Below are positions 2,639 through 40,044 of a stretch of 64,000 bases of DNA, in pieces. The DNA lies in contig DAONGE010000001.1 of NCBI GenBank assembly GCA_035403965.1, forward strand, positions 11,475 through 75,474, in the 5' to 3' direction. The notes below the pieces were generated by a model, which ran no database searches, was not told where the DNA came from, and saw nothing but the letters and a program-made list of their open reading frames with translations. The translations under genes and the position numbers were made by a program. Source of the stretch: Candidatus Omnitrophota bacterium. Lineage in GTDB: Bacteria; Omnitrophota; Gorgyraeia; Tantalellales; Tantalellaceae. Within the stretch, counting starts at the first letter, position 1. Every line of letters begins with the position of its first letter.

Positions 2639-2743
2639 GGCGGTCTCCTTTTTGTTGAATATTAAATAAGTACCACATAACTCGTGTGGAATCAAATCGC
2701 AAGCGACTAATTCGGTCTCCGGCTTTTATCTTTTAAAGGCAAA

Positions 2744-2872: not shown

Positions 2873-3353
2873 ATGCTTTTTGTATAGTGACAGATGCGAA
2901 AAACATATGCGAGTACACCTTCAGTTGAATTAGTGAAATGAGACGGTATGGTGTGAATACCTTTTTAACGGAGAAGTTTGTGTGCTTTCGTACGTGGCAT
3001 CGTGAGGCCGAGCGGGCACGGATCCGGCGGAGCGACATATTTATTTCATGGATCCCCGCCTTCCACCTCCGCTTTTATATCAAAAACTTATATAGCTACG
3101 GCGGACGCGAAAGCGCGCGGGGATGACATTTTTGGCGACGCCGGAGAGCGAGGCCGAGCGCTGAGCGAAGAAATCCTCGCAGGGGATTTCGAGCGTCCAC
3201 GGTAGAAAGAACACAAACTTCTCCGAAAACGGAAATCGTTTAGGAGCCGTACTCCCCATTCCGCCAATTAACAAAACGAGCGCAAATTATCATTCCTTAT
3301 AAACTGGGGAGCGTCCGGATAATAGGAATATGAGAGGCGGATTCCGGAAAGGT

Positions 3354-6297: not shown

Positions 6298-6503
6298 AAT
6301 CAGAGGTAAGAGGACGGGATCTAGGAGGGAAATAATACTTTTGGTTCCGAGATGCCGTTCGTAAGCGCGTGAATCTGTCTAATATCCCACAAGATCGGGT
6401 TACTAACCAGTGCCTTGTTCCATATTTTTGAAGTACAGTGTATAATATCATTATTGGTAATATAATATGGAAAAGACGATCAAGTGACCACTTAAACTGA
6501 CCT

Positions 6504-24900: not shown

Positions 24901-27900
24901 TTTAGGGAAATTTAAAGAAAAAGTCGCAGATCGTATGCTAGTGCATAAAATCATGGCGAATTCGGTAGAAGCTATACATGATGAAGAGAGGCTAATTGAA
25001 GCCTCTGGCGGTGAAGCGCGTATTGTGAGGAGCGCAAATCATGGCACGCAGGGTACAGTGCAGACTGGCGAGGCAGATGGAGAAAATATTGTCGCGGCGG
25101 ATAACGAGAAAAATGAGGGAACCGTAACAGCAGTAAATGGGGCCGTTGTTTTGGGATTTTCACAGGCGAATTGTTGGACCCCGCTTGCGTTGTATGCCGG
25201 CCTTTTGATCTACAGTGAATTGTATAAGCACCGGAAAGCTATCATAGACTTCATCCATTCAAAAGGCTATTTGCGCCTGGAAAAAGGCGTACGTATCCTG
25301 CTGCCGGATCTTTCCAAATACCGCGTTACAAGGATGTTCCACAAAAGTTTGATGAATATGTCAATAGGGGGAACGATCAAAGAGACTGATGAATCCAACA
25401 AATACGATCTAGAAATAAGAGCCAGGCTTAGTGAAGTTGATGCATATATCGGCAGTAATGAGCTGGACAGCGCGGAGAAAGCTTTGAAACGGGCACAATC
25501 TATATTGTTCAAATATGTAGGATTATATCCCGATGACGCAAATATCAGATACATCGTCCTGCAATTTATTTCCGCATATGGAAGCCTTGCGGAAAATGCC
25601 ATTAGTGTCGGAGATTCAAGGGAATCATTGGAAATGGCGTTTCGTGCGTATAATGCCCAGTACAGGATATTGTCTTTAAAAGCTGTTCAGGAGGAAGATC
25701 GTAACAAACTGGTTGTACATGCGATGGTGGGTATCGCAAAACTTTGCGGATCATTTTTGGATTTAAGCTCAGGAGCACAGATAGCGCGAGCATGCGCAAT
25801 GGCAGAGAGGGCACAGGAAATATTTACGGAAAACAGGAATATTCAGAAGGTAAAAAAGAGAGCGGCGACTTGCGTAAAGGCCTTTTGTAAAGTGTCCGAA
25901 GCATACAGTAAATCCGAAAAATACGACGATGCATTGTCAATGGTCGACAAAGCCGCGAGGGCGTTAAAGAATAATGAGAAGGAAAAAGGTGTGAGGGGTT
26001 TGATGCGGGAAGTTGTGCGTTTGTATATGTCCGGTCTTGATGAAATGTGCGGGAATGAGGATAAATTAAAAAAACTCATGAATGAATTTAGGGATAGGTT
26101 GAAGTCAGATCCGTCGGATCCGGTAACAGAAATGATATTTGCGTATATGATGCTGATCTCCGGCAATACAAGTAACGCTGTGGCTTATGCTATGGACGGG
26201 ATAACCAATAGTGACAATGTATTATTGGATATCGGCAATCAAATCGTTCGCACAGGGAATATGATAGAGATGATCGGAAAAGTCCAGGATGCGGCGGAAC
26301 TGATCGATCTGAGGATAAGAATAGAAGAAGAGCTTTCTCCGGGGAATTTGAAGGATAGATGTATTAGCGAATGGGATAAGAGAAATGCGCAGCTTGGCGG
26401 ATCAGAATATGTTGCTTTAAATAAACAGGAGCATGTATTGACTGTACCCGGGGATGGGGCAAAAACAGTGTTAAATAGTGTTTCGGTTCAAGAAGGCGAA
26501 AAACGAAATGATTTGCCGAGGCGCGCGTTAATAGAATTGTATAGGCAGATTGATGAGTGCATGAAAGGATTTTATGATGCAGTTTCTCATAATGAAACTG
26601 ATAAGGCTGAAGGCCTGCTTGGCAAAGCTAAAGAGGCACTTGATGAGATCATTGAGGAATACCCGGATGCTCATTATCTGAAAACAAAGTTTCAAACAAT
26701 TTGTATTGGATATATTAAACTTGGCGGAGTTATGGCAGGACAAGACAAATCGATGCAAGACCTATCAAAAGCTTTCCGTGCTTTTAATGCTGAGCATGAA
26801 ATGCTGGTGGATGCGAAATACGCTGCATACAGAGAATTGAAAGACATAGACAATGTATTGATTCGGTTGATGGGGCGATGGAGAAAACTTGGCAGATCAT
26901 TTTTACAATATTCTTCAAAAGAAAGCACGAGTATTGATACAAGCGCAAAAGCGATAGAAAAATCCATAGAAATATTTGACATGTATAAGGCGGGTGGAGG
27001 GTTGCCGATAAGTGCACAGGATTATGTAAACGATCTGTGTGATATTTCTGACGCATATATCTACTCAAAATCTGACAATAAGGCCGAAGAGGCGATGAAA
27101 GCGACAGCCGCAGCCGAAAAACTGGCAATGGACAACAGGTCTGGATACGATTCGATGGAGATGTTATGTAAAGTTATTCGGCAATATCAAAAGTGTATTA
27201 TCATTTCGTGCGATAATATGAAAAATGTAAAGAGGTTGATAAGTGAATTCGGCGGGCGAACAGAAAAGAATAAAATGGATGCGGTAGCGTCAGGCGCGTT
27301 GTCACTGTTATATCTGATATCCGGGGAATCCGCGCAAATGATCGCATGCCTTGACTTGGCTCAGTACAGCATTAATGACCGGATGAAAATACTTGATGAA
27401 GCCGCGAAATTTTTGGACGAGTATTCTAAGCGAAATCCGGATGATAAGACCGCTAATTTTGTGCGCCTCCAAATTTGGGAGCGTTGCAGGGTGCCGGACG
27501 GTTCCACTTTACAGGAAGAAACCGAAGAAGAACATCTAAAAATGTTTCTTAGCCATTTGAACGAACGATATAAACTATTTACGGGATATTGCGAAGTATT
27601 TTTTGATACGAAGAAAGCCGAGTCCCTTGCATGGAAATATATGATCTCTTATACAAGGCTATGCAAATTGTTGCTGGATAAAAATACTGAAGACGGGATC
27701 AAACATGCCGAGGAAGCTGGCACGCTGGCGTTTGAAATATTTGCCAGATACGAGGATAGTATAGAAATCAGCAACCAAAAGAAATATCAAATAGCCAATT
27801 GTCGCAGGCTGTTCAACATATATTTGAAAGGTAATAAACCGGAAGACGCGTTTGTGATGATCGACAGGGAAAGAAGATTGTTCGGACTAGATATGGCTGA

Positions 27901-30900
27901 ACCAGATGTGAGCAGGGAAATAATGACGCAGTATGTCGAAGTAGTTGATAGTGTGAAAGACGATCCCGAAAAGATCAATGACGTTATGGAACGGTTAAAA
28001 GAGATAAGGAAAAACGATGTTTTCGCATCAGCCGTTCTTGCGTATATATGCCTGTGTTTTGGGAAAAATACAGAGCTTAATAGGGAGAACTATATAGATG
28101 ATTTGAGGAAAAGAGGGAACGAATATCTAGCAGAGTTGGCAAGACAAATGACAATTATGCGCGTTCTGATCAAAAAAATTAAGGAAGCGAGTGATATAGG
28201 TGAGATAAATAAGATTGAGAAAGAACGAAAGGAAGAAATATATATTCTGTTTTTACTAAGGATAGGTGAAGAGTGGGAGAAGTTGCAGCGAGAAAAAATG
28301 CGCCGGGGAGAACGACGAAGGGCTGACCAGGACGCTGAATCCGTGGAAAGTCAACAAAAGGTGTCAAAGACGCAAGTAGAAGCGTCCCAAGTGGTGGTGC
28401 CTAGTCAGGAAGAATTACCTGTGACGGTTGTTGCGACTGAAACTCCGAAAAAGAGGGATGAGGTGGGTTTGCCTGTGAAAAGTGCAAACACCCCGAGCAA
28501 ATCCGGACGGAAAACGAAAAAAGAAATAGCTTTTGAAAAAAATAAAGGGAGCAAAGATAAGCGGATCGATGAATTGATGGAAGTGATCGATGCTAAAAAC
28601 CCGGACGAAGTTATACGGTTGGGAAGGATTTTGGAAGAAAAAAGGAAAAAGTCTGTAAGAAAAGGAGATGCAAAGGGCACGGAAAGATTAGAACAGGCTA
28701 TTGTAAAAGGAGAAGGCTTTTTGAAAAGAATTGGATTAGATGGCAGTGCGATCCGCGCACATGCTGTTATGCCTTTTGGGTTTGCTCAGGCAGATTCATG
28801 GGCGCCTCTCTGTCTTTATGCCGGACTTTTAATTTACACCGCGCTGTATAAACACCGCGAAGCTATCATAGATTTCATTCATTCAAAAGGCTATTTGCGT
28901 TTGGAAAAAGGCGTACGTATCATCCTGCCCGACTTTTCCAAATACCGCATTACAAGGGCGTTACATGAAAGTTTACTTAACGCATCGATAGGATTAACGA
29001 TCAAACGGATCAAAAATAAAACCGCAGGTATTTCGTCATCCGAATTGTCTGTTGAAGAAGCAGCCGGGTTGTTGACCGCATGGATAAACACGCCCCCTGA
29101 AGAAAGGATAAAATCAGTGTTTCAGCCTGTATGGAGTCAGGACAACTCTTTGTTGGGAAAATACAACACCAACGGACAAAAGGTAACAGTTACTCCGGCG
29201 GTGTTGTATTTTGATCCTATGCTTGCGATAGCTAAAAGCATAATTACATATAAAGAAAAAGAACCTCAAGAGGCTGAAAGATATGTAATTCAGGCTATGT
29301 CCGGAAAAGCGTTTGAAGAGTTGTGTCAGAAAGATGTTCGAGATGCATTGATAAGCTGCGGATATGATGCCTTTTTTAAGAATGGAACGATAGAACTGGT
29401 GGAAAAAGAGGGAAGAGAAGAACTGTTATATCCAAACGGAACTAATGTGGCGATTTTTCCGGGATCATTGCTTGGATTTGTAACGGCGTTATACTGGGCA
29501 AAAGAAGGCAGGTTTGGGGAAGTAAACATGCTGATTGTTCCTCCGGTAAACGGTCTTTGTTTTGGGGAAAATAATCCCGATAAACTCTATGCGAAACGAG
29601 CAATTTTTATCAATCGGGAAAATCATATTGTAAAGGTAGAGTTTAAAGATCTGCTTCCGATTCACGGTCTTGCCTATGCCGGGATTTATAGTAACCCGGC
29701 GACAATGAATGAGATAATGTCAAAAGATTTTCCGGTTATTAATTTGCCGATTATTATAGAAATGGCACAGGATAAAGAGTTATTCAATACTTTCTTAAAA
29801 AATAACGGTATCTCTGTCCCGGAACAGTTGGCGATCGATATTGATGATACGAGAAACATCAAAAGCCGGATGACGGATTTCATTAAAAACTTAAAAAGAA
29901 AAGATGGAATTGTAGTTAAGCCATTTGCCGCTTCGGGAGGGCAGGATGTGTTGATGTTCCGGAATGATGAAATAGACAAAGCGGCCGGTCATTGTAAAAA
30001 ACTGCTAAAAAAGGGGAACAAAGTTGTTGTGGAGGGGCGTATTGTTAATGAAATATGGATTGATAGCAGCCAGGGCCATATCGATTGGAATTTACGTGTG
30101 CTTGCAACATGGGACAACGGTAATATAGTTATAAGCCCGGATTTGATAGAAGTCAGATACCAGAAATTTAGCGACGGACCGGTTAATAAGTCAAAAGGCG
30201 CCGAAGTAATTACATTGAATAAATTTTTTGATATACAAGGTTATTCAAAAAAACAAAGGGAACAATTTCTTCAGGGGGTAAAAGAATTTATTACCGGTGC
30301 TTCAATGGCGATTGAACGTGTCGCGGAGAATAAAAAAGGAAAAAGAGAATATATTAGTAAAGTATCCGGCCTTATTGGGTGGGATATTATGTTGGGGCGG
30401 GACGGAAAATGGAAAGTGATCGAAGCCAATGCCGGCTCAGTTGGAGGGATATCTACTATAGAAAAGCTCCTTCCGATTGAACAAAAAGGCGGCGCGGTTA
30501 TTCCAGTAGCGCGTTATATGGCACAAAATGCTATAGCATACCGTGAAAGATTGTCGAAAATACCACAGGATAAAGAGGGGGAATCGTTCAATGTGATTGC
30601 GGATCCATTTATGATGAATAACCTTGCATGGACGGCAGTAGAAGAATCCTATCTGCAAATTGCAGGAGAGATTGCATGCTATTTGCTTGGCATGAATGAG
30701 CGCCGAAAAGATAATAGTGCAATAAATTTCGATATTTTAGCTAAAGTTTCCCTGATGAGGAAAGATTATAATCAGGCAAAATATTTTGCAGAACAAGCAA
30801 TCAAAATTGACCCTAATGACATCGATATGCAGAGGCAATATGTGTATTGTTTGGCAATGTTGAATGAAAGTGATGAGGTCATTAAGATATGCAAGAGACT

Positions 30901-33900
30901 TGTAAGAAAATATTTGTCAGATTGGTATATATGGACGATTATGGGAGATTCATATCGGCTTAATATGGATGATAAAAAGGCGATAAAAGCTTATGAAAAG
31001 GCGGTGAAAATATACTGTGATAAGGGTCAGACATATTCGAAAATAGGGGATGCATATTCTAGGTTGAAAAATTATGAAAAAAGTGCGGATGCTTTTAGGA
31101 GAGCTTTAGAAGTAAACCCAAATAATAGATATGTATGGGCAAGATTGAGTGATGAATATGAAACTCTTGGATGCAAGGATTTATCAGATTACATTACGGC
31201 CGAAGTGTTTGATAAGCTGGATGAAGGCGAATCGCCAAAAATAGAGTGGTCAAATATACTTGAGCACTTAAAATCTGGGGAAAGGATTGTTGCAACAAAA
31301 CATAGGGAAATGGCGGGCACACATGCTGTTTTTGCATTCGGGCTTGGTCAGGCGAATTGCTGGACCCCTCTTGCGTTGTATGCCGGACTTTTAATTTACA
31401 CCGCGTTGTATAAACACCGCGAAGCTATCATAGATTTCATTCATTCAAAAGGCTATTTGCGTCTGGAAAAAGTCGCACGTATCCTGCTGCCGGATCTTTC
31501 CAGCCTCAAATTCAAAAAATATTTGAGCGAAAAGATCTCTGATCTAACCGCGGACATGATTAATACCATAACCGGTTCTGTCAAAAACAAAGTTGACGGG
31601 AAAAAGATGCAGATCCCGTCCGACAGATTGCCGCGCAAGGCAAGCACGTTTGAACATAACGCGCAGTATGGGGCTAGGGGCAAAGGTCCCGGAGGCATTG
31701 ATCATGGAACAACGGCCGGCGGGAAAAAAATAGACAGCGGAGTGATCACGGAGCAGCGTGCAAAAGAATTTGTCGACAAAAGCGAGTTAACGTTGAAGGG
31801 CGATGACGGCGAAGAATATTTATTCCTGCTACAAAGTCGCGAAGATATGGCCGAAGGCGCATATACAATATCGGTTATAAATAATAAAAGAGAAAGGGTT
31901 GCCAAGCTGGACGTAGGGAAGAATGTTGTAGAAGAGGGTTTTGAGGGAATGTATGATAACGCGATTGTTGTAAGAGAGGATCTTAAAAGGAGGAATATTG
32001 GGGCCATATTGTTCAAATTAGCGATGTATATCGCTAAGGCAGATGGCTTCGAGAAGTTTTTTGTGAACTGGGTGGATAGCGCCAATGAACCTGAGAATGC
32101 GTTTTATACGGCAATAGGTTTTAAGGAAACATATGAGGGTTCCGGAGATTATTATTTTGACCTAAAAGATCTTGTATCCGGAAATAAGACGGTAGAAAAA
32201 ATATCATTCCCACTTTATGACATACAAGTGACCAGAGATCCTGTAACCGGCAGAATGATCCGAGAAGAAGTTTATGATTATATGCCGCTAGCCGCTACTT
32301 CGGAAAAAAGATATTTATATTCAGTCAGAGTGTATGGTCCGGATAGACTTCTTTCCGAAGCCAGATATTACGACAACTCCGGAAAGCTGATAAAGGTCGC
32401 CGCGAATGATTACGAGTTTTTCTCAGACATGTACAGCCGTTGGATGGATATGAATCCGTTTACGGCCAAGGATGTGTTGATTTCCTATGTAGAGCATGCT
32501 AAAGGGAGGGCTCTCAATAATGACGAAATAAAACAGATCGACCGGTTTGTTGTAGCGGTTTTTGATAGGGATCTTATGGGATTTATAAATTCGTACAGTA
32601 AATCTGAAGAAGGGTATCCATATTTTTGTCATAAAGCGGCAGATGATATCTATGATACGTTGCGATCAAAGGGTATAGCTGTGCGGACCGTATGGTATGG
32701 TATTCACAAGGTAGCCGAAGCCGATGTGGCCGGGATAAGATTTGTGCTGGATGGAGCTGCGGCGCAGTTCGAAAAAATGCGAGATAACGCTATCAGTATT
32801 GTAGCCGACGCATTTAGAGGTACTGGAATAGTGATCATTCCGTCGGATCTGGCGCGTGAAATACCGTTTTGTAACCTGATATACAAGAACGATCTTGGGG
32901 GTGGAGAAGTAGGCAAGATTTACGATCCATTAACCGGACGGGAATTCCTATTAAATGCGATGTTTAATTTTCTTCTAGTGAAACAGGAAGGATCGGAAAT
33001 AACGGTTGATCTCGAAACAGGCGGGCCGGTTGTAGGAGAGATAGACTCTAGGCCGGAAGAGCGTCTTCGCGTGCTTAGGGATTATTATACTCTCTCAGAC
33101 AAGCCGGATGAATTTGATAAGTTGTTAGAACGTAGATCTGTAGCCGATCGTGAGATGCTTGAACGGGCGAAAACAGTCGCCGCGTATAACGCGGAGCGCG
33201 GTGAAAAAAGAATGGATCAGCCCGAGCAAGAGCCGGGAAGGATATTTAAGGAGATTTTCGGCGGATCGGCGGAGGAAGTGCTTTATTTTGCCACACAACG
33301 AAGCGACAGGTCGGGGATACTGTCTTTTGTAAGGACGATTCTTAAACATCAGCCGCTGAGGCAATTTGTTGAAATGAACGAATATAGGAACGAAATAGTT
33401 ATGACAAACGGTGTGAAATATGTGTTTGACACAAAGGAATATTCGTTTGATCATGGCAAGGGAGCGAACATAACGGACATCGTTGACGCTGTCGCGGTGT
33501 CGGTCGATAAGACGAGAATGGCTTTCGGTCTTGGGTTTGCCCCTCAAACGGATATGGTGATATTAGGCGGGAAGCTTGTTGTACTACAGGAACCTGTTAA
33601 AGGGGTTATGTTCAGCGGATATGCACAAAGTCCGGCGGATCTTATAAGATCCGTTGAGGCTATAGGATGCGCTCTTGGACAGATGCATAGAAATGGAATA
33701 CTGCACGGGAATATTGAAATATCCGGGGGAAATAAGGAGGAGAGGGAAAGCGTATATATTGACGAGACTTCAGGGGTTCCGAAGGCCTATTTTATTGATT
33801 TCGGGGGCGAGTTGGTAGTGGGCGCGAAAAAAGAATTTCTGGGAGAAAAGAAAAAACTCATCAGCGATATTTTAAAGTACGCCTCTGACCATTTTCCCCG

Positions 33901-36900
33901 GGAAGGAATGTACGAAGATAGGATCCGGGATATTTTTGATAACGCCTATGATAAAGCGGCTTATTCAGCCGGATACAGGGCAGTGTCGGTATCTGATATC
34001 CGTCTTCCGCGGAAGGCGATGGTATCTGAGGATATGATGATGGCGATATGGTGGGCGGTCTTTTTTATCTCTCCGGTGCTGTCATGGATATTTTTTGAAT
34101 GGCATGACAGAAAAATAGATAAAGGGGAAAAGAAGTTCGAACAGGAAAGATTGGAGCGGTTGAGGCAAAGAAATAAGACTTTGGATCAGACCAAAGGGAA
34201 AGATAAAGAGGAAATTAATGGGGACGCTGATAAGTCTGATAAAGGGCCGTCAAGGCGAGATATATTGAAAATGGGTATTATGTTACCGTTCCTTATGATG
34301 GCTGAACGCGCCGGGGCCGGAGTCACTGAAAAAGATCTCGTTGAAAAGTTCCTGACTGATACTTTATCGAAGTGTGCGGTATCGCTTTTGAGAAAACCCG
34401 GTGATGATCGGGTGTTGCGTGCCGTTGTAAAGAAGATCAGATCTGGCGCGGAAAAGGGGAACGCGGAAATATTGAACGGCATAGCCGATATATTGGAAAC
34501 ATATAACGCGCTTTTGAACGCTGAAAGTCCCGAAGAAGACGAAAAACTAAATGAAAAAGTGAAAGCGCTGACCGTGGAGGTTAACGGTAGATTGTCCGAG
34601 ATAGGTTTATTCACGTTTATTGGGCTTGTCAGAGAGCCGGTTCCGGACGGACAAGGAAGGACAGGTATATATGTTAAATCTTTCAGACTGGAAGAAGCGT
34701 CCGAGTATTTGAAAGAGAAGATAGGAAATGAAAAGTTTTATCTTTTGAAGGGTATAGACACGACCCCGCTTATGGACACAAAAGGTTTTCACGACGAAAA
34801 ACTAGGGTATTCTGCTGTATTTCTTGACTTGGTGGAAAAAGAAGCGGACGCGGTATATGAAGAACTAGGCGGCGAGGATAGAAAAAATAGATCTTCGCTT
34901 GAGAGGGCGTTGGACAAAATACTTAAATGTGAGTTCGCTGGAGTGACGAGGAATGAAATAAAAGAAAAGATATTGAACGCGACGGTTTTGCATGAGTTGG
35001 CGCATATCCCTGATAGAGGGAAACTGGATGAGAACGGAAGCGTTCAGGAGATATACGGTTTACTCGCCGGTGTAACACAGGGAGACGCGCAATATTACGG
35101 GATATATACCCTGGCCAGAATGATAACCCCGGGAGATTTGCCTTTTATCCCGCATGATCTCGCGGCCAGGACTATTTTCGATGGGATGTTGAAGATCCTT
35201 CATTCTGAAGGTAGGGCCGGGGATGTGTCTTTTTCGACTGTGGACGCGGAAGGATTAGACGGGCTTATAAATTATTTATCGGGAATGTCGCGAAAGGACA
35301 TCCTTGATATCGTACAGAAAGTTGAAAACTCCAAAGATAAGGTATTGAGCGGGTCCCGCGTTGTTGCCGGAGCGGCAACAGGCGTAGGAATAACAATAAA
35401 AGACCGGTCAAATGATCCGCTAAAGAATAAAGGCGGGTTGCAGAAAACAGATCCGGGTCTGGAGTTTGATGTTACTTCTTACCAGGTCACGGGTGCGCAG
35501 TATAAAGACAGTATAGTTGTTCTTAGAAATGCCCCGCGGGATAAAAAACAGGTCGTTCCGTTAAAAGTTATACAGCCGTCCAAACTTGATCAGGCCGACA
35601 GACAGAAACTCGCCGGCAATATCCGGAAATGGCTGGAGTATAGAAAAGACATAACTTGGCCGGATGCGGTAGAGAATATCGCGGATCAACTCGAAAGATA
35701 TATAGGCCCTAACATATATTTTGCCGTAACGGATGACATGGAAGTGGAAGGATATATTAAAATCACAACCGTTGGGATGCAACAAATAGAGATAGCTCCG
35801 TGGAACCAGAAAAAACATGGCGATGAGAGAAGATTTTTGGGTGTGGGGAATCAATTGCTGGCGTTTATGGCCGTGAAGTTTTTCAAAGAGCAGGGGCTTG
35901 TGAGGATGTTAGCTCCGAACATGAACACAAAACGAGCTGTCGGAGAAGGGAATATCACTACGATAGATAACCCGCTGGATACCGTGCTTGAACGCGAAGG
36001 GCTTATAAATTTCCTTGATGGGCAGAAAGAGATATTAGAGCGGGTTATCCGGGATTATGCAGCCTCATTCCGGGTTAAAAATGACAATAGACCCCAAAAA
36101 GAGGGATCTTCCGTAAATACCGTGCGAAGTCGTAAAACGGCCGGTTCCGCCGCGCGGTATATATGCGTTCCTACCGTTAAGGAAGGTGAAGAATACCGTT
36201 CATTGACGCCTTTATATGAGATACGATCTGTGTCCGGCGAAAAAACGGAAAAAGAGGGACGGATGGTAAGAAAAGCTGTTCTTATCAGGAAAAGTCCCTA
36301 CCCTGTTTATCAGGAAGAGGTTGAAGGTTTTGTATTCAGAGACAGAGTTTATGCGGAAGAAAAAGTTACAAAATTTCATCGCGATATGCGTTATATGCTT
36401 AACAAAACCCCGGCCAAAATATCGGTTAAAAAAGTCATGGGAATAAGCGAATTGTTCGCGTTGTCAGGACTTCCTATCAGTAAAAATATAGTAAACGGTA
36501 TGATAACAGCCGGATATTTTGTGGATAGGGTCGGTTTTATGAAGGCTTGTAACGAAGAAGGGCTTTCGGCGCAACGTATAGTGAGAGAGGGTATATGCGA
36601 AGAGATGGAAAGAGGGCAGGATCTTGTCTATTCGGAAGTTCTTGCCGGTTTGGTAGATAATGTTCCGTCGGAATCTTCTTTTCTGGTTATGGACAGCGAG
36701 AGCCTGAACAAACCGTTTTCACGTTCGCAATATGGAGTTAGATACAATCTATTTACAAATATTATCATGCGGAATAAACCGGAAACGATAGCGTTCCGGA
36801 ACAAATATTTTGAGATAATGCGGGAACGTGACTATTCAGTTGCGCGGGGGATGGGGTTAGATCTCGCACCGGAAATTTTTACGAAGTATTTGCCTGATCT

Positions 36901-38977
36901 TTATCATGACATGGAAGATTTTTTGATAGATCATGCCCTTCAACCCGAAAAAAGAAAACTGGATAAAGAGATCTTCGCTCTTTTTGAACAAAGTGGTATA
37001 TTCGACGAAAAAGCCCTTGCCGCGGCTGGAAAAGTCGCTTACGAGGCCGATTTGGCGAGAAATAAGGAAGAATATCTAAGGCTTGTAAGGGATCAAAGTC
37101 TCCCGATGCGTAAAAGAGTTCTTGCCTGGTTGCATAACGCGCAAGCGTTCCTTGGGTTTGCTGCGGTAGTTGACGAAGGAATATCTCCGGAAAAATTACG
37201 CGAGCAGCTCCGGCAAACTTTTGGAGAAGGCGCGATTAATTACAATAATATCCCGAAGTCGCTTTTGATCGAAGCTGAGGTGAACGGCGAGAAAAGATAT
37301 TTTCAACTGGTTCTTCCGATAGATGCCAAGTTTGATAAAAAGAAACTAATGTCCGCTATCGGGGCAAAACGTATGACGTTTGTGCAGGGAGAGGACACTG
37401 TGAGAAATATTATAGGATACAAGGTCGGGCTTATACCGCCATTGCCGCTTACTGAAAAACCGATAACCGTTGTTGTTGAAGGATCACTCAGGGAAAAGGT
37501 CCGCTATATTATCATGCCGTACGGAGAACCGGATGAAAGGTTCGCGGTAAATCTGAAAGCGCTTTTGGATTCGATAGAACTTACCGGCATACATAGCGTG
37601 CGTTTCGCGGATTTTATTGTAAGTCCAGACGGATCCGCTGAAGTGATTAACGCTTCTGAAACGGCGGGGTCTGGTGCGAAAGAAGTGCCAAACGCTTCAA
37701 AGGGGATGATGGACGCTGAAATAGACGCGTTATGGACCGGAGCTTTGGTGGAATGTACGCGTAAGAACCACATGGATTCAGAAAATGATGTTGTTGAAAA
37801 AATGAGGGCTTTTGATAAAAGCGCTCACGCGCTTTTCAGATATTTTCTGGCGTTAAGGATAGCCAAAAAAGTATGTAAAATGAAACCTTCGGTATCAAGG
37901 ATATGGCTTTTTGGTGATGTAGGGAATGGTGCGGTTGATAACATGACCCCCGGGGCCGATCTGGATTTTATAGTAGAAGTTGAAAATAAAGGGGAATGCG
38001 ATGGGGTCAAGCGGCTGCTTGACGAAATAAACCGTAAAGTGACCGCAAAATTTAACAGCATGATGTATGGAACAGGGATAAATGTTTCAGAACTCATTGA
38101 GCTCTCAAATGTGGAAAGAGTACTTTCAAAAGAAGCGGTTGATGCGAAGAAAGGGATAGCGATGCTTGTCGGGTCTTATAGTGAGCCCGCCTCGTTGATA
38201 TATGAAAGAGATCCGGACGAGAACGCGATGATACCAGTGCGTGGTGTATTGGATGATAAGGGTGTCGTATCCATTGGAGGTCAAAACGATAGAAATGAGG
38301 TCGAAGAGACAGCTCGAGCACAGAATCTGGCATATACATTGAAGATGTGTGCGGATTCGGAGTATGAGCGTGTTTTAAAGATCCCGGCGGAAAACCGCAA
38401 ACAGAGTTCAGATATACTGATCGCGATCGAGACCGAAGAGATTAACGAAGCCGCGAACACCGGATGGATACCGTTCGAGCAGTTAAACGATATGCAGGGT
38501 TTAACGGTCGCTGTTAAAAGGTTTGTGGAAAAAATGCGCAATGAGAAAATGATAACCAATGTCAGGGTGGTGTATGGGAGTAAAGACACGCTGGCAAGGG
38601 AGATGGAAAAAGCTGTCAAAGAGATGCCGAACCTGTCATATGGTAACATTGTGTTGTTCGGCAGTGAAGGAACGATAAAAGGGGCGGACGCATTTAAAAC
38701 ATATCGGGATAATAACGCTTTTCTCGCGTGCGTGGACCCGTCGGACATTAAGGGCGGAGATAAATACATACGTTATCTTGAGACGCTGGAAGTGGCTCTA
38801 AATCTGGCGTTTAAAAGATATTCAATAGATGAAATGAGAGAAAAGCATAAATTCATTGGTATCGAGCCCATCTCCGGGCGTATTGTGCGTTTTATTCCTC
38901 ACGCGGCGCCTATAGATACCGAGGAGCCGTCCAGGATCTATCAAAATCAGATCAAGCGCCTTGAGATGCAGGCTTGA
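18998..38977 (+). CDS. giant multi-domain mosaic protein 1 (6,659 aa): signal/TM, S2P-like protease motif, PLP fold-II domain, TPR/helical arrays, 2 Kdo/RIO-like kinase folds, ATP-grasp, 2 GNAT, HExxH, YbaK-like, MNT nucleotidyltransferase
   Basis: Single uninterrupted 19,980-nt ORF. N-terminal hydrophobic signal MPNYLKKIISIVIIVTFVADPNIALA. Individual modules are listed below as separate features. Four copies of the separator motif. Confidence 0.8.
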   Translation: MPNYLKKIISIVIIVTFVADPNIALAADSGIFNKQNDSSTLSPTLRMKSIDVNKEEKALNTTGIDEKDNISEDFRAQSRFLYVAGEIGKAIAKKEQLKLPMDDIQRIIIEKVPDIDATGFNYKKIGLKEGRYSLDYVDNDKPLLTLNYYFVKGDLAQGQIKVADVSEKGLLVFECNMPGMDGIASIKEKETSEPKIQNSVHKRIRMSKDEKRDVGEINAQNNGIDRKALRFTNVLEKRLNRVFTAAAVRQKTGRKVEIKITPVLRYGNNEAAAWTRGFTMRATRSDMTIIHEYSMVFDRTDLKEFLFTVRHDISRIEGLNDIADIPEWEDLMYDLALQPRTMDEATVVNTAQMEITKRYYRFNDPENLYVEHPAPVIFFSPVVNLLDIFPITVMMDIDGKPFYFLERNLGLVGLTMNSGVPHMVRFTQFEYAGRIRNGIEIVRFTDNYEPTAFILRGYIDLEKGFQIIHYTREENEMNKIRLPGMRNEVLEIEAMCNLWPRLSEEITRDKTETMTSEENKKNKKPELAPLYRDMGVILGTLVGAGLLYGQFGITGIPVAAAISVLTLLPGWLIHEIGHLIGRPFGKEAEIRAGPIASLLLFSAAIIPAIVLHSYGFPSVIIDVAAANYFVHIFADGQSLLKRSGFLHPEDVNDANIPEREDQDELTPGQKLINKIKEVSARGLADYGVIKTPLIPLDKISGMMSFNRKERKVFLKDEAWQTGGSFKARGVSVEVDDAIRSRIEAIIAEEPHLQEIKASGKTPLKERPFYIVTQTTGNHGIALINAVNVAIKIYSEKYPEYKEAITNFEPVIFTIKNLPEIKFKLMTEAVEIYRKTSGKTESETIRNYYENYNKALTAREEFLREHSEDAVYMEHGGLAIMAGHATAGIEIDEQLTEEFGIGKDKNVVVIVPVGAGGPIGIGAGVKLNGRNVTFIAVGTKEYDAIIRSIDSSKVEWNKANPSPTAFIKGKPIIYPDGIAVDKSEKSAVDVARDFVDEKFVTSDKKGLNRAAPLLYSDLESYYMERAKPLAVGGTTAATLEALIENKGNEIMKNADVIVLFGTEGNVDPDITEYIYGLNSGNEPLKFGENGELTTQLIGKLKGYDIAARENIHGQRYSQAEVFIEKQRWVLKNAAAWDKEAVDQARYVIGNYLSLVNSYCRAMKNENDQKIKTDMIESCEKLLKNTTSLYEKFKREGKILGCGAYIISAYTNLAGQYGNEDFYKIERLLDTAKEILDQGAADRYGDITTEGAREVIPPITKQAEFIITGYMKLAGKMKWQDDFANALRIAEKARDLLAKYRDAPGVENVFYDVGIFYVNLAAIYRDRFRDIVFSMAMLMKAESIRIEFGEYNSAQKGHSTGNRALSSSIINGYTLTARKFSEKKQYAAAVHAIRRSGVLTWRYGTDEYKENRDIVGLMVLANAVSNILRRDVLENKQEYLNNLNDAKRILWISAQVLRKYDTPSVKAQVEYLVSAYTNLSYSYKTVGEYGLCGDVLERVERILRSYPDQQSVRDQAEFVVSSFANLAGAYREAGDLETAEKFLNRAYKVFLNFIGEYSVQRQKKFMIDDHMRLSQAFEVKGDRQKAVELSDKALKIAQTKLDVEKHKRLRAMGPIPFEMFIVFLAYGSIYKHRKEIIDFIHSKGYLRLEKAVRLLIPDLSKYRVTEWLHESLQNISIGLTIKPVAIDQGMWDLEQRIPERGQSEEAKFIEMFGGHSEEVLEFITEERNCSEISGFSIKNVKHFETAENVSRNVYRIELVLKGGHNHVFYVREYRSTDGESQIGELDWITGPIRRMTDRVEKAAAAGMVAPYARLFIDRGRCLFVQDEAQGIPVKEFIKDEETALLAAESIGYALGRLHGLGIEHGDLEIERKGSPEHNHIFIHEENDGVTANFIDFYERPFSFWRRGKVKIFGEEDDLLNKLEKYVFGKIGSENRAENEIADVFTKAYIKGNVSVGEKYRPSLVAKIKMALGKFKEKVADRMLVHKIMANSVEAIHDEERLIEASGGEARIVRSANHGTQGTVQTGEADGENIVAADNEKNEGTVTAVNGAVVLGFSQANCWTPLALYAGLLIYSELYKHRKAIIDFIHSKGYLRLEKGVRILLPDLSKYRVTRMFHKSLMNMSIGGTIKETDESNKYDLEIRARLSEVDAYIGSNELDSAEKALKRAQSILFKYVGLYPDDANIRYIVLQFISAYGSLAENAISVGDSRESLEMAFRAYNAQYRILSLKAVQEEDRNKLVVHAMVGIAKLCGSFLDLSSGAQIARACAMAERAQEIFTENRNIQKVKKRAATCVKAFCKVSEAYSKSEKYDDALSMVDKAARALKNNEKEKGVRGLMREVVRLYMSGLDEMCGNEDKLKKLMNEFRDRLKSDPSDPVTEMIFAYMMLISGNTSNAVAYAMDGITNSDNVLLDIGNQIVRTGNMIEMIGKVQDAAELIDLRIRIEEELSPGNLKDRCISEWDKRNAQLGGSEYVALNKQEHVLTVPGDGAKTVLNSVSVQEGEKRNDLPRRALIELYRQIDECMKGFYDAVSHNETDKAEGLLGKAKEALDEIIEEYPDAHYLKTKFQTICIGYIKLGGVMAGQDKSMQDLSKAFRAFNAEHEMLVDAKYAAYRELKDIDNVLIRLMGRWRKLGRSFLQYSSKESTSIDTSAKAIEKSIEIFDMYKAGGGLPISAQDYVNDLCDISDAYIYSKSDNKAEEAMKATAAAEKLAMDNRSGYDSMEMLCKVIRQYQKCIIISCDNMKNVKRLISEFGGRTEKNKMDAVASGALSLLYLISGESAQMIACLDLAQYSINDRMKILDEAAKFLDEYSKRNPDDKTANFVRLQIWERCRVPDGSTLQEETEEEHLKMFLSHLNERYKLFTGYCEVFFDTKKAESLAWKYMISYTRLCKLLLDKNTEDGIKHAEEAGTLAFEIFARYEDSIEISNQKKYQIANCRRLFNIYLKGNKPEDAFVMIDRERRLFGLDMAEPDVSREIMTQYVEVVDSVKDDPEKINDVMERLKEIRKNDVFASAVLAYICLCFGKNTELNRENYIDDLRKRGNEYLAELARQMTIMRVLIKKIKEASDIGEINKIEKERKEEIYILFLLRIGEEWEKLQREKMRRGERRRADQDAESVESQQKVSKTQVEASQVVVPSQEELPVTVVATETPKKRDEVGLPVKSANTPSKSGRKTKKEIAFEKNKGSKDKRIDELMEVIDAKNPDEVIRLGRILEEKRKKSVRKGDAKGTERLEQAIVKGEGFLKRIGLDGSAIRAHAVMPFGFAQADSWAPLCLYAGLLIYTALYKHREAIIDFIHSKGYLRLEKGVRIILPDFSKYRITRALHESLLNASIGLTIKRIKNKTAGISSSELSVEEAAGLLTAWINTPPEERIKSVFQPVWSQDNSLLGKYNTNGQKVTVTPAVLYFDPMLAIAKSIITYKEKEPQEAERYVIQAMSGKAFEELCQKDVRDALISCGYDAFFKNGTIELVEKEGREELLYPNGTNVAIFPGSLLGFVTALYWAKEGRFGEVNMLIVPPVNGLCFGENNPDKLYAKRAIFINRENHIVKVEFKDLLPIHGLAYAGIYSNPATMNEIMSKDFPVINLPIIIEMAQDKELFNTFLKNNGISVPEQLAIDIDDTRNIKSRMTDFIKNLKRKDGIVVKPFAASGGQDVLMFRNDEIDKAAGHCKKLLKKGNKVVVEGRIVNEIWIDSSQGHIDWNLRVLATWDNGNIVISPDLIEVRYQKFSDGPVNKSKGAEVITLNKFFDIQGYSKKQREQFLQGVKEFITGASMAIERVAENKKGKREYISKVSGLIGWDIMLGRDGKWKVIEANAGSVGGISTIEKLLPIEQKGGAVIPVARYMAQNAIAYRERLSKIPQDKEGESFNVIADPFMMNNLAWTAVEESYLQIAGEIACYLLGMNERRKDNSAINFDILAKVSLMRKDYNQAKYFAEQAIKIDPNDIDMQRQYVYCLAMLNESDEVIKICKRLVRKYLSDWYIWTIMGDSYRLNMDDKKAIKAYEKAVKIYCDKGQTYSKIGDAYSRLKNYEKSADAFRRALEVNPNNRYVWARLSDEYETLGCKDLSDYITAEVFDKLDEGESPKIEWSNILEHLKSGERIVATKHREMAGTHAVFAFGLGQANCWTPLALYAGLLIYTALYKHREAIIDFIHSKGYLRLEKVARILLPDLSSLKFKKYLSEKISDLTADMINTITGSVKNKVDGKKMQIPSDRLPRKASTFEHNAQYGARGKGPGGIDHGTTAGGKKIDSGVITEQRAKEFVDKSELTLKGDDGEEYLFLLQSREDMAEGAYTISVINNKRERVAKLDVGKNVVEEGFEGMYDNAIVVREDLKRRNIGAILFKLAMYIAKADGFEKFFVNWVDSANEPENAFYTAIGFKETYEGSGDYYFDLKDLVSGNKTVEKISFPLYDIQVTRDPVTGRMIREEVYDYMPLAATSEKRYLYSVRVYGPDRLLSEARYYDNSGKLIKVAANDYEFFSDMYSRWMDMNPFTAKDVLISYVEHAKGRALNNDEIKQIDRFVVAVFDRDLMGFINSYSKSEEGYPYFCHKAADDIYDTLRSKGIAVRTVWYGIHKVAEADVAGIRFVLDGAAAQFEKMRDNAISIVADAFRGTGIVIIPSDLAREIPFCNLIYKNDLGGGEVGKIYDPLTGREFLLNAMFNFLLVKQEGSEITVDLETGGPVVGEIDSRPEERLRVLRDYYTLSDKPDEFDKLLERRSVADREMLERAKTVAAYNAERGEKRMDQPEQEPGRIFKEIFGGSAEEVLYFATQRSDRSGILSFVRTILKHQPLRQFVEMNEYRNEIVMTNGVKYVFDTKEYSFDHGKGANITDIVDAVAVSVDKTRMAFGLGFAPQTDMVILGGKLVVLQEPVKGVMFSGYAQSPADLIRSVEAIGCALGQMHRNGILHGNIEISGGNKEERESVYIDETSGVPKAYFIDFGGELVVGAKKEFLGEKKKLISDILKYASDHFPREGMYEDRIRDIFDNAYDKAAYSAGYRAVSVSDIRLPRKAMVSEDMMMAIWWAVFFISPVLSWIFFEWHDRKIDKGEKKFEQERLERLRQRNKTLDQTKGKDKEEINGDADKSDKGPSRRDILKMGIMLPFLMMAERAGAGVTEKDLVEKFLTDTLSKCAVSLLRKPGDDRVLRAVVKKIRSGAEKGNAEILNGIADILETYNALLNAESPEEDEKLNEKVKALTVEVNGRLSEIGLFTFIGLVREPVPDGQGRTGIYVKSFRLEEASEYLKEKIGNEKFYLLKGIDTTPLMDTKGFHDEKLGYSAVFLDLVEKEADAVYEELGGEDRKNRSSLERALDKILKCEFAGVTRNEIKEKILNATVLHELAHIPDRGKLDENGSVQEIYGLLAGVTQGDAQYYGIYTLARMITPGDLPFIPHDLAARTIFDGMLKILHSEGRAGDVSFSTVDAEGLDGLINYLSGMSRKDILDIVQKVENSKDKVLSGSRVVAGAATGVGITIKDRSNDPLKNKGGLQKTDPGLEFDVTSYQVTGAQYKDSIVVLRNAPRDKKQVVPLKVIQPSKLDQADRQKLAGNIRKWLEYRKDITWPDAVENIADQLERYIGPNIYFAVTDDMEVEGYIKITTVGMQQIEIAPWNQKKHGDERRFLGVGNQLLAFMAVKFFKEQGLVRMLAPNMNTKRAVGEGNITTIDNPLDTVLEREGLINFLDGQKEILERVIRDYAASFRVKNDNRPQKEGSSVNTVRSRKTAGSAARYICVPTVKEGEEYRSLTPLYEIRSVSGEKTEKEGRMVRKAVLIRKSPYPVYQEEVEGFVFRDRVYAEEKVTKFHRDMRYMLNKTPAKISVKKVMGISELFALSGLPISKNIVNGMITAGYFVDRVGFMKACNEEGLSAQRIVREGICEEMERGQDLVYSEVLAGLVDNVPSESSFLVMDSESLNKPFSRSQYGVRYNLFTNIIMRNKPETIAFRNKYFEIMRERDYSVARGMGLDLAPEIFTKYLPDLYHDMEDFLIDHALQPEKRKLDKEIFALFEQSGIFDEKALAAAGKVAYEADLARNKEEYLRLVRDQSLPMRKRVLAWLHNAQAFLGFAAVVDEGISPEKLREQLRQTFGEGAINYNNIPKSLLIEAEVNGEKRYFQLVLPIDAKFDKKKLMSAIGAKRMTFVQGEDTVRNIIGYKVGLIPPLPLTEKPITVVVEGSLREKVRYIIMPYGEPDERFAVNLKALLDSIELTGIHSVRFADFIVSPDGSAEVINASETAGSGAKEVPNASKGMMDAEIDALWTGALVECTRKNHMDSENDVVEKMRAFDKSAHALFRYFLALRIAKKVCKMKPSVSRIWLFGDVGNGAVDNMTPGADLDFIVEVENKGECDGVKRLLDEINRKVTAKFNSMMYGTGINVSELIELSNVERVLSKEAVDAKKGIAMLVGSYSEPASLIYERDPDENAMIPVRGVLDDKGVVSIGGQNDRNEVEETARAQNLAYTLKMCADSEYERVLKIPAENRKQSSDILIAIETEEINEAANTGWIPFEQLNDMQGLTVAVKRFVEKMRNEKMITNVRVVYGSKDTLAREMEKAVKEMPNLSYGNIVLFGSEGTIKGADAFKTYRDNNAFLACVDPSDIKGGDKYIRYLETLEVALNLAFKRYSIDEMREKHKFIGIEPISGRIVRFIPHAAPIDTEEPSRIYQNQIKRLEMQA
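20580..20910 (+). other. site-2-protease (M50)-like intramembrane metalloprotease module inside giant gene 1
   Basis: Three hydrophobic helices. HExxH inside a helix (LIHEIGHLIG, 20717-20731). Downstream N-x7-DG motif (AANYFVHIFADG, ~20896) has the same spacing as the S2P NxxPxxxLDG motif. Confidence 0.45.
21090..22110 (+). other. fold-type II PLP-dependent enzyme domain (Trp-synthase beta / Thr dehydratase superfamily)
   Basis: GGSFKARG lysine motif (21161-21184), TGNHGIAL, Gly-rich loop PVGAGGPIGIG. Confidence 0.6.
23826..24040 (+). repeat. separator motif A1 (hydrophobic helix + KHRKEIIDFIHSKGYLRLEK .. GLTIK)
   Basis: MFIVFLAYGSIYKHRKEIIDFIHSKGYLRLEKAVRLLIPDLSKYRVTEWLHESLQNISIGLTIK. Confidence 0.7.
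24240..24720 (+). other. protein-kinase-like fold module 1 (Kdo/RIO/LPS-kinase-like)
   Basis: LGRLHGLGIEHGDLEIE (catalytic HGD) and FIDFYE (DFG-like) at ~24560-24685. Confidence 0.45.
25150..25385 (+). repeat. separator motif A2
   Basis: ANCWTPLALYAGLLIYSELYKHRKAIIDFIHSKGYLRLEKGVRILLPDLSKYRVTR..SIGGTIK. About 88% nt identity to A3 and A4. Confidence 0.7.
28770..29008 (+). repeat. separator motif A3
   Basis: ADSWAPLCLYAGLLIYTALYKHREAIIDFIHSKGYLRLEKGVRIILPDFSKYRITR..SIGLTIK. Confidence 0.7.
29750..30480 (+). other. ATP-grasp domain module (RimK / glutathione-synthetase-like)
   Basis: GIVVKPFAASGGQDVLMF (ATP-binding loop region) .. WKVIEANAGSVGG (Mg/ATP-binding strand). Confidence 0.5.
30640..31170 (+). 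other. TPR repeat array
   Basis: Four or five 34-aa units with W/LG/Y/A/F/A/P positions (KDYNQAKYFAEQAIKIDPND.., DWYIWTIMGDSYRL.., GQTYSKIGDAYSRLKNYEKSADAFRRALEVNPNN). Confidence 0.6.
31335..31500 (+). repeat. separator motif A4 (lacks the KYRxT..GLTIK tail)
   Basis: ANCWTPLALYAGLLIYTALYKHREAIIDFIHSKGYLRLEKVARILLPDLS. Confidence 0.65.
31800..32130 (+). other. GNAT N-acetyltransferase module
   Basis: Acetyl-CoA motif A IVVREDLKRRNIGAILFKLAM .. FYTAIGFKE. Confidence 0.5.
33420..33850 (+). other. protein-kinase-like fold module 2
   Basis: GCALGQMHRNGILHGNIEISGG .. YFIDFGG. The catalytic Asp is replaced by Asn, so it may be a pseudokinase. Confidence 0.4.
34985..35015 (+). other. HExxH zinc-metallopeptidase-like motif (LHELAHIPD)
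   Basis: CATGAGTTGGCGCAT at 34991-35005. Context TVLHELAHIPDRGKLDENG resembles short WLM/M48-like minimal metalloprotease cores. Confidence 0.3.
35740..35950 (+). other. GNAT-like module 2
   Basis: EGYIKITTVG..RRFLGVGNQLLAFMAVKFFKEQGL. Confidence 0.35.
37270..37620 (+). other. YbaK/ProX-like aminoacyl-tRNA deacylase-fold module
   Basis: IGYKVGLIPPLPL matches the GYxxGxIxPxG signature of the YbaK/ProX editing domain. Confidence 0.4.
37900..37985 (+). other. minimal nucleotidyltransferase (Pol-beta-like NTase) module
   Basis: LFGDVGNGAVDNMTPGADLDFIVEV carries the G[SD]x9-13[DE]h[DE]h signature. Confidence 0.5.
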
Positions 38978-39059
38978 TCTAATCCCGCATCGATGTATTA
39001 TTGCATTTTATGTTATGTCAAATCTCTGTTATTTGTGATTTCACGAATTTTTTATTATT

Positions 39060-39147
39060 ATGCCGGATCATATCCACGATATTATTTCGATCGTAGGGCG
39101 GGGTTTCCCCGCCCAGAATACGTCGGGCGCGGAGACCGCGCCCCTAT
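39060..39147 (+). repeat. ~90-bp duplicated fragment of the Y1 transposase gene (HuH-motif codons + REP-like double hairpin)
   Basis: 39060-39147 is ~95% identical to 39502-39590 (ATGCCGGATCATATCCACGRTATTATTTCGATCGTAGGG..CGTCGGGCGCGGAGACCGCGCCCCTA). No RBS precedes it. Confidence 0.6.
39093..39147. repeat. REP-like element copy 1 (two hairpins: GGGCGGGG-TTT-CCCCGCCC and GGGCGCG-GAGAC-CGCGCCC)
   Basis: Perfect 8-bp and 7-bp GC stems read directly from the sequence. Confidence 0.65.
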
Positions 39148-39263
39148 GTTTAAATTGTTTGTGTATTTTTTTGATGCCACCGTCCGCGGGAACGCAAAAT
39201 AAAATTATAAAAATTGAACGAATTTGTCCCCAAAATGTGTCTATAAATATAAGGGGAATTAAT

Positions 39264-39788
39264 ATGGGCGAACCAATATATCCGGCCTTGCGACGGAGGT
39301 ACTCGTTGCGATTGAAGGGGTATGATTATTCTTCAATTGGGACATATTATGTGACCATTTGCGTCAAAGATCGCGAGAATATTTTTGGTGAGATCAGAAG
39401 AGATAAAATTATTCTTAATGAGAATGGGATAATTGTACGTGATTATTGGAACGATCTTAAAAAACATTTTTTAAATATCAAAATTGGTTCTTTTGTTATT
39501 ATGCCGGATCATATCCACGGTATTATTTCGATCGTAGGGGCGGGGTTTCCCCGCCCTGAATACGTCGGGCGCGGAGACCGCGCCCCTACGTTGGGAGATA
39601 TTGTCGCGTATTTTAAATATGGAACGACGAGGGATATAAATTTTAACAAAAAAACACCAGGTATGCACTTATGGCAGCGAAATTATTATGAACATATAAT
39701 TCGTAATGAATCGGAATTAAATGAGGTCCGGGAATACATAATTAATAACCCTCTGAAATCTGAGATTTTTCTCGATAAATTTATGTAA
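39264..39788 (+). CDS. tnpA: IS200-like / REP-associated Y1 (HuH) transposase, with an in-frame REP-encoded insertion
   Basis: YYVTICVKDREN, HuH motif IMPDHIHGII, C-terminal LWQRNYYEHIIRNESEL..YIINNP with the catalytic Tyr. A 17-aa insertion GAGFPRPEYVGRGDRAP sits between the HuH motif and the next helix and is encoded exactly by the REP hairpins. AAGGGGA RBS precedes ATG 39264. Confidence 0.75.
   Translation: MGEPIYPALRRRYSLRLKGYDYSSIGTYYVTICVKDRENIFGEIRRDKIILNENGIIVRDYWNDLKKHFLNIKIGSFVIMPDHIHGIISIVGAGFPRPEYVGRGDRAPTLGDIVAYFKYGTTRDINFNKKTPGMHLWQRNYYEHIIRNESELNEVREYIINNPLKSEIFLDKFM
39534..39590. repeat. REP-like element copy 2, located in-frame inside the transposase CDS
   Basis: GTAGGGGCGGGGTTTCCCCGCCCTGAATACGTCGGGCGCGGAGACCGCGCCCCTACG. 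Confidence 0.65.
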
Positions 39789-39811
39789 TGACGAATATGT
39801 CCTGATTTCCA

Positions 39812-39848
39812 CGCATGTCGGGCGCGGAGACCGCGCCCCTACGCATAG
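39812..39848. repeat. REP-like element copy 3 (second hairpin only), 24 nt downstream of the transposase stop
   Basis: CGCATGTCGGGCGCGGAGACCGCGCCCCTACGCATAG. Confidence 0.6.
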
Positions 39849-40044
39849 ATTTTGGCATATGCGTTCTGTGTTTTTGTCAGCATGTGTTATGCCAACCAAA
39901 TTTTATTTTATGCACAGGAGGGGATAAGCTGTTCCTAAAATCGTAAGCTAATTGTTTATAATGACTTAAAAGCAGGCGGCCATGAGCATTGTTAGTAAAA
40001 TTTAAAGTTAATTATAATATTATATATGGTATAATGTCGGCACC

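Follow-up and report, generated by a model that had tools for sequence, protein, structure and literature searches.

Between two very long genes in the 64,000-nt stretch of Candidatus Omnitrophota DNA analyzed here (hereafter the window) lies a small putative transposase gene with a repetitive extragenic palindromic (REP) element inside its coding sequence (CDS), in frame, and related elements on both sides. The question raised by this locus is whether the internal element is an accident of this one gene or something that belongs to it. An initial annotation of the island, made from the sequence alone, considered a REP nested in its own transposase to be unusual. It is instead a published family trait and not a new arrangement: a REP within the transposase gene is the hallmark of subclass 2.4 of the REP-associated transposases (TnpAREP), where such insertions have been treated as neutral (Quentin, Siguier, Chandler and Fichant, 2018, BMC Genomics 19:475). 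The island is probably a REPtron of this type, that is, a single TnpAREP subclass 2.4 gene bordered by its cognate REPs and carrying the same REP in-frame inside. In the same work, whose classes and subclasses cover the Y1 HUH superfamily, subclass 2.4 corresponds to group 4 of the REP-associated tyrosine transposases (RAYTs) of Bertels et al. (2017). The family-wide analyses reported below sharpen the published description and leave its category unchanged.

Each REP unit in the window is 23 nt long and consists of a GTAG foot with a perfect 8-bp stem closed by a 3-nt loop; both window REPs begin GTAG-GGG. Within the gene, two units form an inverted dimer (39534-39589, plus strand): GTAG-GGGCGGGGTTTCCCCGCCC, a 10-nt linker, and GGGCGCGGAGACCGCGCCC-CTAC. 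The GTAG of the second hairpin is on the opposite strand and so reads CTAC on the plus strand, leaving GTAG and CTAC as the outermost elements of the dimer. Upstream of the gene there are again two hairpins, the first at 39093-39114 (plus strand; GTAG foot, GGGCGGGG-TTT-CCCCGCCC) and the second, inverted, at 39125-39147 (minus strand; GGGCGCGG-AGA-CCGCGCCC), with a degenerate CTAT foot; this second hairpin, which a T-rich tail follows, was flagged as terminator-like. Downstream, 28 nt past the stop codon (rather than the 24 nt initially given), is a single REP at 39817-39842 (minus strand; GGGCGCGG-AGA-CCGCGCCC with a CTAC foot, or GTAG on the minus strand). The gene is bordered on both sides, at 39093-39147 and 39817-39842, by GTAG-footed REPs within 1 kb of it. 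The three GC-rich elements in an AT-rich background had all been described as double hairpins; this holds only for the upstream and internal copies, the downstream copy consisting of the second hairpin alone. The internal dimer is in phase 0 and free of stop codons, as initially reported, and encodes about 19 amino acids (V91-T109) rather than about 17. This stretch corresponds to the β3-αC loop of the protein.

Exact searches of the window found three occurrences of the 25-mer GTCGGGCGCGGAGACCGCGCCCCTA, around hairpin 2, and two of the 19-mer GGGCGGGGTTTCCCCGCCC, which is hairpin 1, with 0.00 expected for either in shuffled sequences. The GC content of the loop region is 50-60%, against about 31-38% in its surroundings. 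Folding of the REP copies as single-stranded DNA, a check proposed at the outset, gave the predicted structure in every case, with stable hairpins on both strands; folding energies are -24 to -27 kcal/mol for the double copies (z about -5), with -26.9 kcal/mol for the internal dimer (z = -4.9). The GC-rich segment within the CDS is therefore a genuine REP, an inverted dimer of the same type as the flanking REPs.

The gene itself (39264-39788, plus strand, 174 aa) is a predicted RAYT, or TnpAREP, on the basis of family models, alignment to the E. coli enzyme (PDB 4ER8), and a structural model. It scores 32 bits against the Pfam Y1_Tnp model (cut-off 23). The HuH motif IMPDHIHGII, recognized initially and confirmed by alignment, contains H83 and H85 (codons at 39510-39518), which align to E. 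coli H59 and H61. The catalytic tyrosine had been placed in LWQRNYYEHIIRNE; this instead aligns to the stretch of E. coli TnpAREP that recognizes the GTAG foot, with W137, Q138, E143, H144, and R147 matching the foot-reading residues W94, Q95, E100, H101, and R104 in the 4ER8 alignment (listed in Quentin et al., 2018). The predicted catalytic residue is Y158 (codon at 39735-39737), within REYIINNP; it and N162 align to the E. coli catalytic Y115 and metal ligand N119. Both histidines, Y158, and N162 are invariant in an alignment of 27 sequences. The protein ends 11 residues past the NNP motif, with no C-terminal extension.

The most likely start codon is at 39264, which agrees with the N-termini of homologs and is preceded by a Shine-Dalgarno-like aagggga. 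The Joint Genome Institute gene call starts at 39174 and is 204 aa long, but both the Shine-Dalgarno-like site and the alignment of homologs speak for 39264. The reading frame is open for a further 68 codons upstream, across AT-rich DNA from the ATG at 39060 to 39263, running into the transposase gene; this ATG is part of the frameshifted upstream copy of the HuH codons discussed below.

Alignment to 4ER8 puts about 19 more residues between the HuH motif and the conserved tryptophan than are found in E. coli TnpAREP. An AlphaFold2 model built from the 27 aligned sequences (mean predicted local distance difference test score, pLDDT, of 81) predicts a strand at 83-90, in which H83 and H85 lie, a coil of low confidence at 91-109, and a helix at 110-129. 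The coil coincides exactly with the stretch encoded by the REP dimer. The insert does, then, appear to lie in a loop, as had been proposed, but one that follows the HuH strand (β3) rather than a HuH helix. Among PDB entries, Foldseek ranks 4ER8_A, the structure of E. coli TnpAREP in complex with a REP, first (E = 9e-8), with IS200/IS605 TnpAs next.

The fold shared with these last enzymes raises the possibility that the island is an autonomous insertion sequence (IS) of the IS200/IS605 type lying between the two giant genes, with the flanking hairpins as its ends. IS200/IS605 transposases such as those of IS608 and ISDra2 have the HUH/Y1 fold and recognize a hairpin plus a guide on single-stranded DNA; hairpins border the gene here as well, its distribution over many phyla is patchy, and its neighboring genes differ in the three contexts compared (the window and the related loci L202 and L204). 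However, the protein scores just 22.4 bits against the IS200 model NF033573, whose cut-off is 55, and does much better, at 67.3 bits, on the NCBIfam REP_Tyr_transpos model. The window unit has no tnpB, there is no second copy in the window, and the flanks belong to one GTAG-footed REP family, without the distinct left and right ends of an IS. Typical IS features are also lacking in class 2, to which subclass 2.4 belongs (Quentin et al., 2018). An IS200/IS605-like element is accordingly improbable. From its sequence, the gene is predicted to encode a REP-associated HUH/Y1 tyrosine transposase: of the initial description as an IS200-like HuH/Y1 transposase, the second half stands and the first does not.

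Comparison with homologs bears on the nature of the internal REP. A protein database search gave about 4,600 matches at E ≤ 1e-5, the nearest non-identical one at 59% identity. An insertion of variable length is present at the same place in 26 of 26 aligned homologs, and the closest relatives (51-59% identity) share a loop coding for VGAGFPRP...GRGNRAPTLG. At the DNA level, 80 homologous genome loci were compared; they come from many phyla, among them Chloroflexota, Nitrospirota, Cyanobacteria, Bacteroidota, Poribacteria, Zixibacteria, and Proteobacteria. In 65 of them, the DNA between the HuH and WQR codons has a perfect palindrome (stem of 8 bp or longer), most commonly in the form GTAGGGGC-(variable)-GCCCCTAC. 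Perfect stems are concentrated in this region (83 in 13.3 kb of loop DNA vs. 14 in 27 kb of other CDS), and the palindromes are GC-rich (0.69, vs. 0.47 for the CDS). Both feet, 5′ GT[AG]G and 3′ C[TC]AC, are present in 29 of the homolog hairpins. At 31 of 68 loci, the palindrome of the loop recurs in flanking DNA with at most two mismatches, usually 20-170 nt beyond an end of the gene. An Omnitrophica relative (locus L204; like the close relatives L206 and L207, below, it was fetched separately from the 80) has a first hairpin identical to that of the window, both in the CDS and upstream.

The inner stems vary among loci, with both arms changing together. Among 17 distinct 28-nt palindromes, seven of 12 stem pairs have changed on both sides, in 37 cells and without G-T pairs, and the covariation score is 0.52, compared with 0.14 for shuffles; the set was picked as perfect palindromes, so that its 100% pairing is by construction and is not evidence. 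The encoded peptide shifts with the stem (VGAKNFSPLP, RGTACRAPT, VEIIHELSLP, and CRGGSRTAPT are examples). Of the GTAG feet, 38 are read in phase 0 and 16 in phase 1; none is in phase 2, where a TAG stop would arise. REP type agrees with the protein tree: at 29 of 65 loci the REP core is shared with the nearest protein neighbor, while 1,000 shuffles gave 2.1 such loci on average and 10 at most, and identical cores are found in hosts of different phyla. Because the stems covary, the peptide and the reading phase change, and the type follows the protein tree across phyla, these sequence comparisons show that it is the DNA palindrome, and not the peptide, that persists and is inherited with the gene.

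Two of these loci show further elaborations. The Nitrosomonas halophila locus (L033) has two whole transposase genes (2602-3106 and 6001-6498), 96% identical and 3.4 kb apart, showing that some members of the subclass duplicate as units. On a Poribacteria chromosome (L030, 5560-6660), a 19-nt REP is repeated eight times over the 450 nt that precede the gene and three times inside the loop, which has grown to about 80 aa of repeated peptide encoded by REP DNA.

The similarity to subclass 2.4 as published is extensive. Members have GT[AG]G-footed flanking REPs with three G-C pairs at the stem bottom and lack a C-terminal extension; they are scattered across phyla, and they have a β3-αC insertion, highly variable in length and sequence, with an in-frame REP. 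Subclass 2.4 REPs are described as either canonical, with the three bottom G-C pairs, or "double foot" (GT[AG]G ... C[TC]AC), and it was suggested that an inverted REP dimer with a central deletion could yield the latter (Quentin et al., 2018). A full-text literature search turned up no further paper naming subclass 2.4. The window differs in having a clean inverted dimer, rather than a single long or double-foot REP, and in its extra upstream block of HuH codons plus REP. Its H85-to-Y158 distance of 73 aa is above the range of most subclasses (58-67) and below the subclass 2.4 median of 88; in subclass 2.4 this distance is described as quite variable (Quentin et al., 2018).

Several observations weigh against this assignment or qualify it. 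The score of the protein against the NCBIfam REP_Tyr_transpos model, 67.3 bits, is below the curated cut-off of 80; the match is interrupted because the REP-encoded loop lies within it. Subclass 2.4 was assigned here by features of the gene and its REPs. Perfect pairing in the covariation set is, as noted, by construction. Our accounts of how internal and flanking REPs stay alike, and of where the upstream block came from, are inferred. Finally, exact 25-mer and 19-mer searches found no REP copy beyond the island within the window. Two genes, however, take up 42 kb of these 64 kb, and a low REP density would not be unusual in this group, since only about 14 occurrences per replicon are reported for the flanking 16-mers of group 4 RAYTs (Bertels et al., 2017).

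The initial view of the nested REP as unusual corresponds to another reading, in which a genomic REP recently entered this one transposase gene and was tolerated by luck. REP insertions into unrelated genes are documented (Di Nocera et al., 2013, BMC Genomics 14:522), as in-frame GTAG REPs encoding short peptides rich in Gly, Ala, Pro, and Arg, and the internal and upstream copies here are about 95% identical, so some exchange between them is recent. The published insertions, however, are sporadic and species-specific, while here the REP occupies a fixed loop of an enzyme that acts on REPs and is inherited with its gene. A private event is hard to reconcile with a loop of REP-like palindromes whose position is constant in all 26 aligned homologs and in 65 of the 80 loci from different phyla, with the agreement between REP type and protein tree, or with the loop shared by relatives at 51-59% identity and the first hairpin identical to that of the Omnitrophica relative. 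It was initially proposed that related transposases with an equivalent loop, and no REP elsewhere, would speak for a lineage-specific domain. All 26 homologs do have the loop, but it is REP DNA in them too; it is therefore neither a private insertion, which is very unlikely on this evidence, nor a peptide domain (see below).

Two known enzymes provide points of comparison for the subclass 2.4 REPtron proposed here. E. coli TnpAREP (RayT/YafM, PDB 4ER8; subclass 2.2, group 2) resembles the window protein in its fold, HuH motif, catalytic tyrosine, W/Q/E/H/R residues, and REP-bordered gene, but the two proteins are only about 19% identical, and the E. coli gene has no internal REP and about 19 fewer residues between HuH and Trp. 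E. coli REPs are also long, imperfect, bulged hairpins present in hundreds of copies. The REPs of the Stenotrophomonas maltophilia REPtron (Corneloup et al., 2021, NAR 49:6982) have an identical 23-nt architecture; this system belongs to subclass 2.5 (group 3), with no in-gene REP reported. The S. maltophilia enzyme cleaves in vitro at a CT dinucleotide adjoining the REP (Corneloup et al., 2021).

By analogy with the biochemistry of these two enzymes, the predicted window protein would bind a folded REP with its GTAG foot on single-stranded DNA, and might cut and rejoin at nearby CT dinucleotides, so that REPs are moved or amplified. The internal REP may be tolerated because the loop it encodes is, to judge from the model, disordered and peripheral. 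Internal and flanking REPs could be kept alike by REP-anchored exchange, either gene conversion or copying mediated by the enzyme. With a REP inside the gene, enzyme and substrate would always travel together.

A stronger version of this last idea is that the internal REP is not a passive passenger but a heritable master copy of its REP family. Since the gene would then carry its own substrate, neither recombination nor horizontal transfer could part enzyme and repeat, and the enzyme or REP-anchored repair would copy the internal REP outward, sometimes along with adjacent coding DNA, as perhaps in the upstream block and in L206 and L207. Covariation of the stems, the use of two reading phases, and the agreement with the protein tree are compatible with this and with a neutral view alike, and the master-copy role seems rather doubtful at present. 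Subclass 2.4 is a natural example of a coding segment shaped by selection on a DNA palindrome rather than on a peptide: the segment is read in either stop-free phase, its stems covary, and enzyme and palindrome are inherited together. The window offers a compact enzyme-substrate pair, with a putative enzyme of 174 aa and REPs of 23 nt.

The upstream REPs are part of a longer block (39050-39150, plus strand), a non-coding copy of the HuH codons and REP dimer, in direct repeat with 39491-39592. This duplication was noticed in the initial annotation, which put it at 90 bp and 440 bp upstream; it is real, with a length of about 101 bp, a separation of 441-442 bp, and about 95% identity. The copies differ by four substitutions and one indel. 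The upstream copy has lost one G, which breaks the frame, and the CTAC foot of its second REP has become CTAT. On the 5′ side of its REP dimer it includes 47 nt of coding DNA. The remains of a decayed second gene copy were considered as its source and rejected: no homology was found past 39050-39150, local DNA alignments of the flanks to the gene being within the range of shuffles and three-frame protein alignments covering the block only. Similarity stops at the block edges, leaving a discrete 101-bp copy.

Among the 80 genome loci, a flanking REP bearing HuH codons was found in the window only, other flanking copies reaching no more than about 5 nt beyond their hairpins. Partial parallels are seen in two of the close relatives. 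In L206 (P0004), 15 nt that match the internal REP's coding flank exactly stand ahead of a downstream REP, and this REP forms part of the encoded C-terminus; in L207 (P0006), the N-terminus carries a fused 39-nt copy of the HuH segment. In L204, the Omnitrophica relative, there is an upstream REP dimer without any coding flank. The HuH-plus-REP block is, with these partial parallels, the only feature of the island that the literature does not cover. These copies may be by-products of REP-anchored copying or recombination between internal and flanking REPs, whether by the enzyme or by general repair; the block in the window would then derive from an exchange in which the internal dimer was copied together with 47 nt of HuH-coding DNA, the copy now decaying. 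The internal copy has a CT dinucleotide at its left edge (ttC|Tttt), where TnpAREP might cleave; with CT so frequent in the T-rich surroundings, this does not amount to evidence for such a site.

Repeats near contig-internal hairpins can be assembled wrongly, and it could be asked whether the 101-bp block is an artefact of metagenome assembly. This is scarcely credible: a collapsed or duplicated exact repeat would not have acquired the four substitutions and the indel that separate the copies, and relatives that were assembled independently have similar partial copies (15 nt plus REP in L206, 39 nt in L207).

The window's REPs also occur where no such gene is close by. An exact 22-mer comprising hairpin 2 and its foot is present in at least 120 metagenome contigs. 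Eighty of these were examined, and gave 71 distinct contexts without a homologous gene within 600 nt; 18 of the 71 have a GTAG-footed partner REP within 70 nt, and in eight the window's exact hairpin 1 is present. The REP doublet of the window is thus a free-standing repeat in other organisms. In one contig (L082), the REP is in AT-rich extragenic DNA beside a terminator-like hairpin. None of the 80 matches listed came from the source sample, Ga0116247. Stop-to-stop open frames were tried as a test of whether these copies are extragenic and proved uninformative, as the contigs are mostly GC-rich (median 63% GC) and have long spurious frames. A further contig (L110, 2880-3572; Ga0315279_10001246) contains a tandem array, 8.9 copies of a 79-bp unit, in which the window's second REP alternates with a variant REP, resembling a bacterial interspersed mosaic element. 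The array linker contains GATCATATCCAC, a 12-nt match to the HuH codons of the window; this was noticed post hoc and may be chance.

Although VGAGFPRP and GRGNRAPTLG seem conserved in the protein among the closest relatives, a lineage-specific peptide domain selected at the protein level, with its REP likeness a side effect of Gly, Ala, Pro, and Arg codons, is exceedingly improbable: across the family the peptide varies freely while the DNA stays a perfect palindrome, the same GTAG foot is read in two phases, identical sequences are found outside genes, both in flanks and in contigs where the gene is not close at hand, and the loop is modeled as a low-confidence coil.

The genes on either side of the island remain to be considered. 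Two giant ORFs on the plus strand, 18998-38977 (6,659 aa) and 40045-62208 (7,387 aa), are separated by a gap of 1,067 bp (38978-40044), in agreement with the 1.07 kb first reported, in which ORF 39264-39788 is the sole ORF with family support. They had been described as recombination-prone paralogs, and it was suggested that the island had split one ancestral giant gene in two or mobilized a copy of it. Close paralogy is rejected: the two have no BLASTN match and no BLASTP match at E ≤ 1e-5, and at E ≤ 1 their matches are confined to repeated hydrophobic linker modules (23-35% identity over about 65-250 aligned residues, the best being 28-35% over about 80-110 residues). Each also has its own signal-peptide-like N-terminus, and there is a promoter-like site upstream of the second. 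Gene splitting or paralog mobilization by the island has no support, and it would best be annotated as a probable ordinary subclass 2.4 REPtron between two independent giant genes, not as a gene-splitting scar.

The giant genes are themselves mosaics of unrelated enzyme domains spaced by a repeated hydrophobic linker. Those of the first include PALP, TPR, and tRNA_edit, and those of the second HATPase_c, glycosyltransferase, acetyltransferases, and MutS_V; the linker motif A[IV][IV]DF[IL][HY][SE]K is found three times in the first gene and six times in the second. A 12-bp inverted repeat (ATCAGATCAAGC / GCTTGATCTAAT, 38946-38983), which has no relation to the REPs, extends across the stop codon of the first of the two genes.

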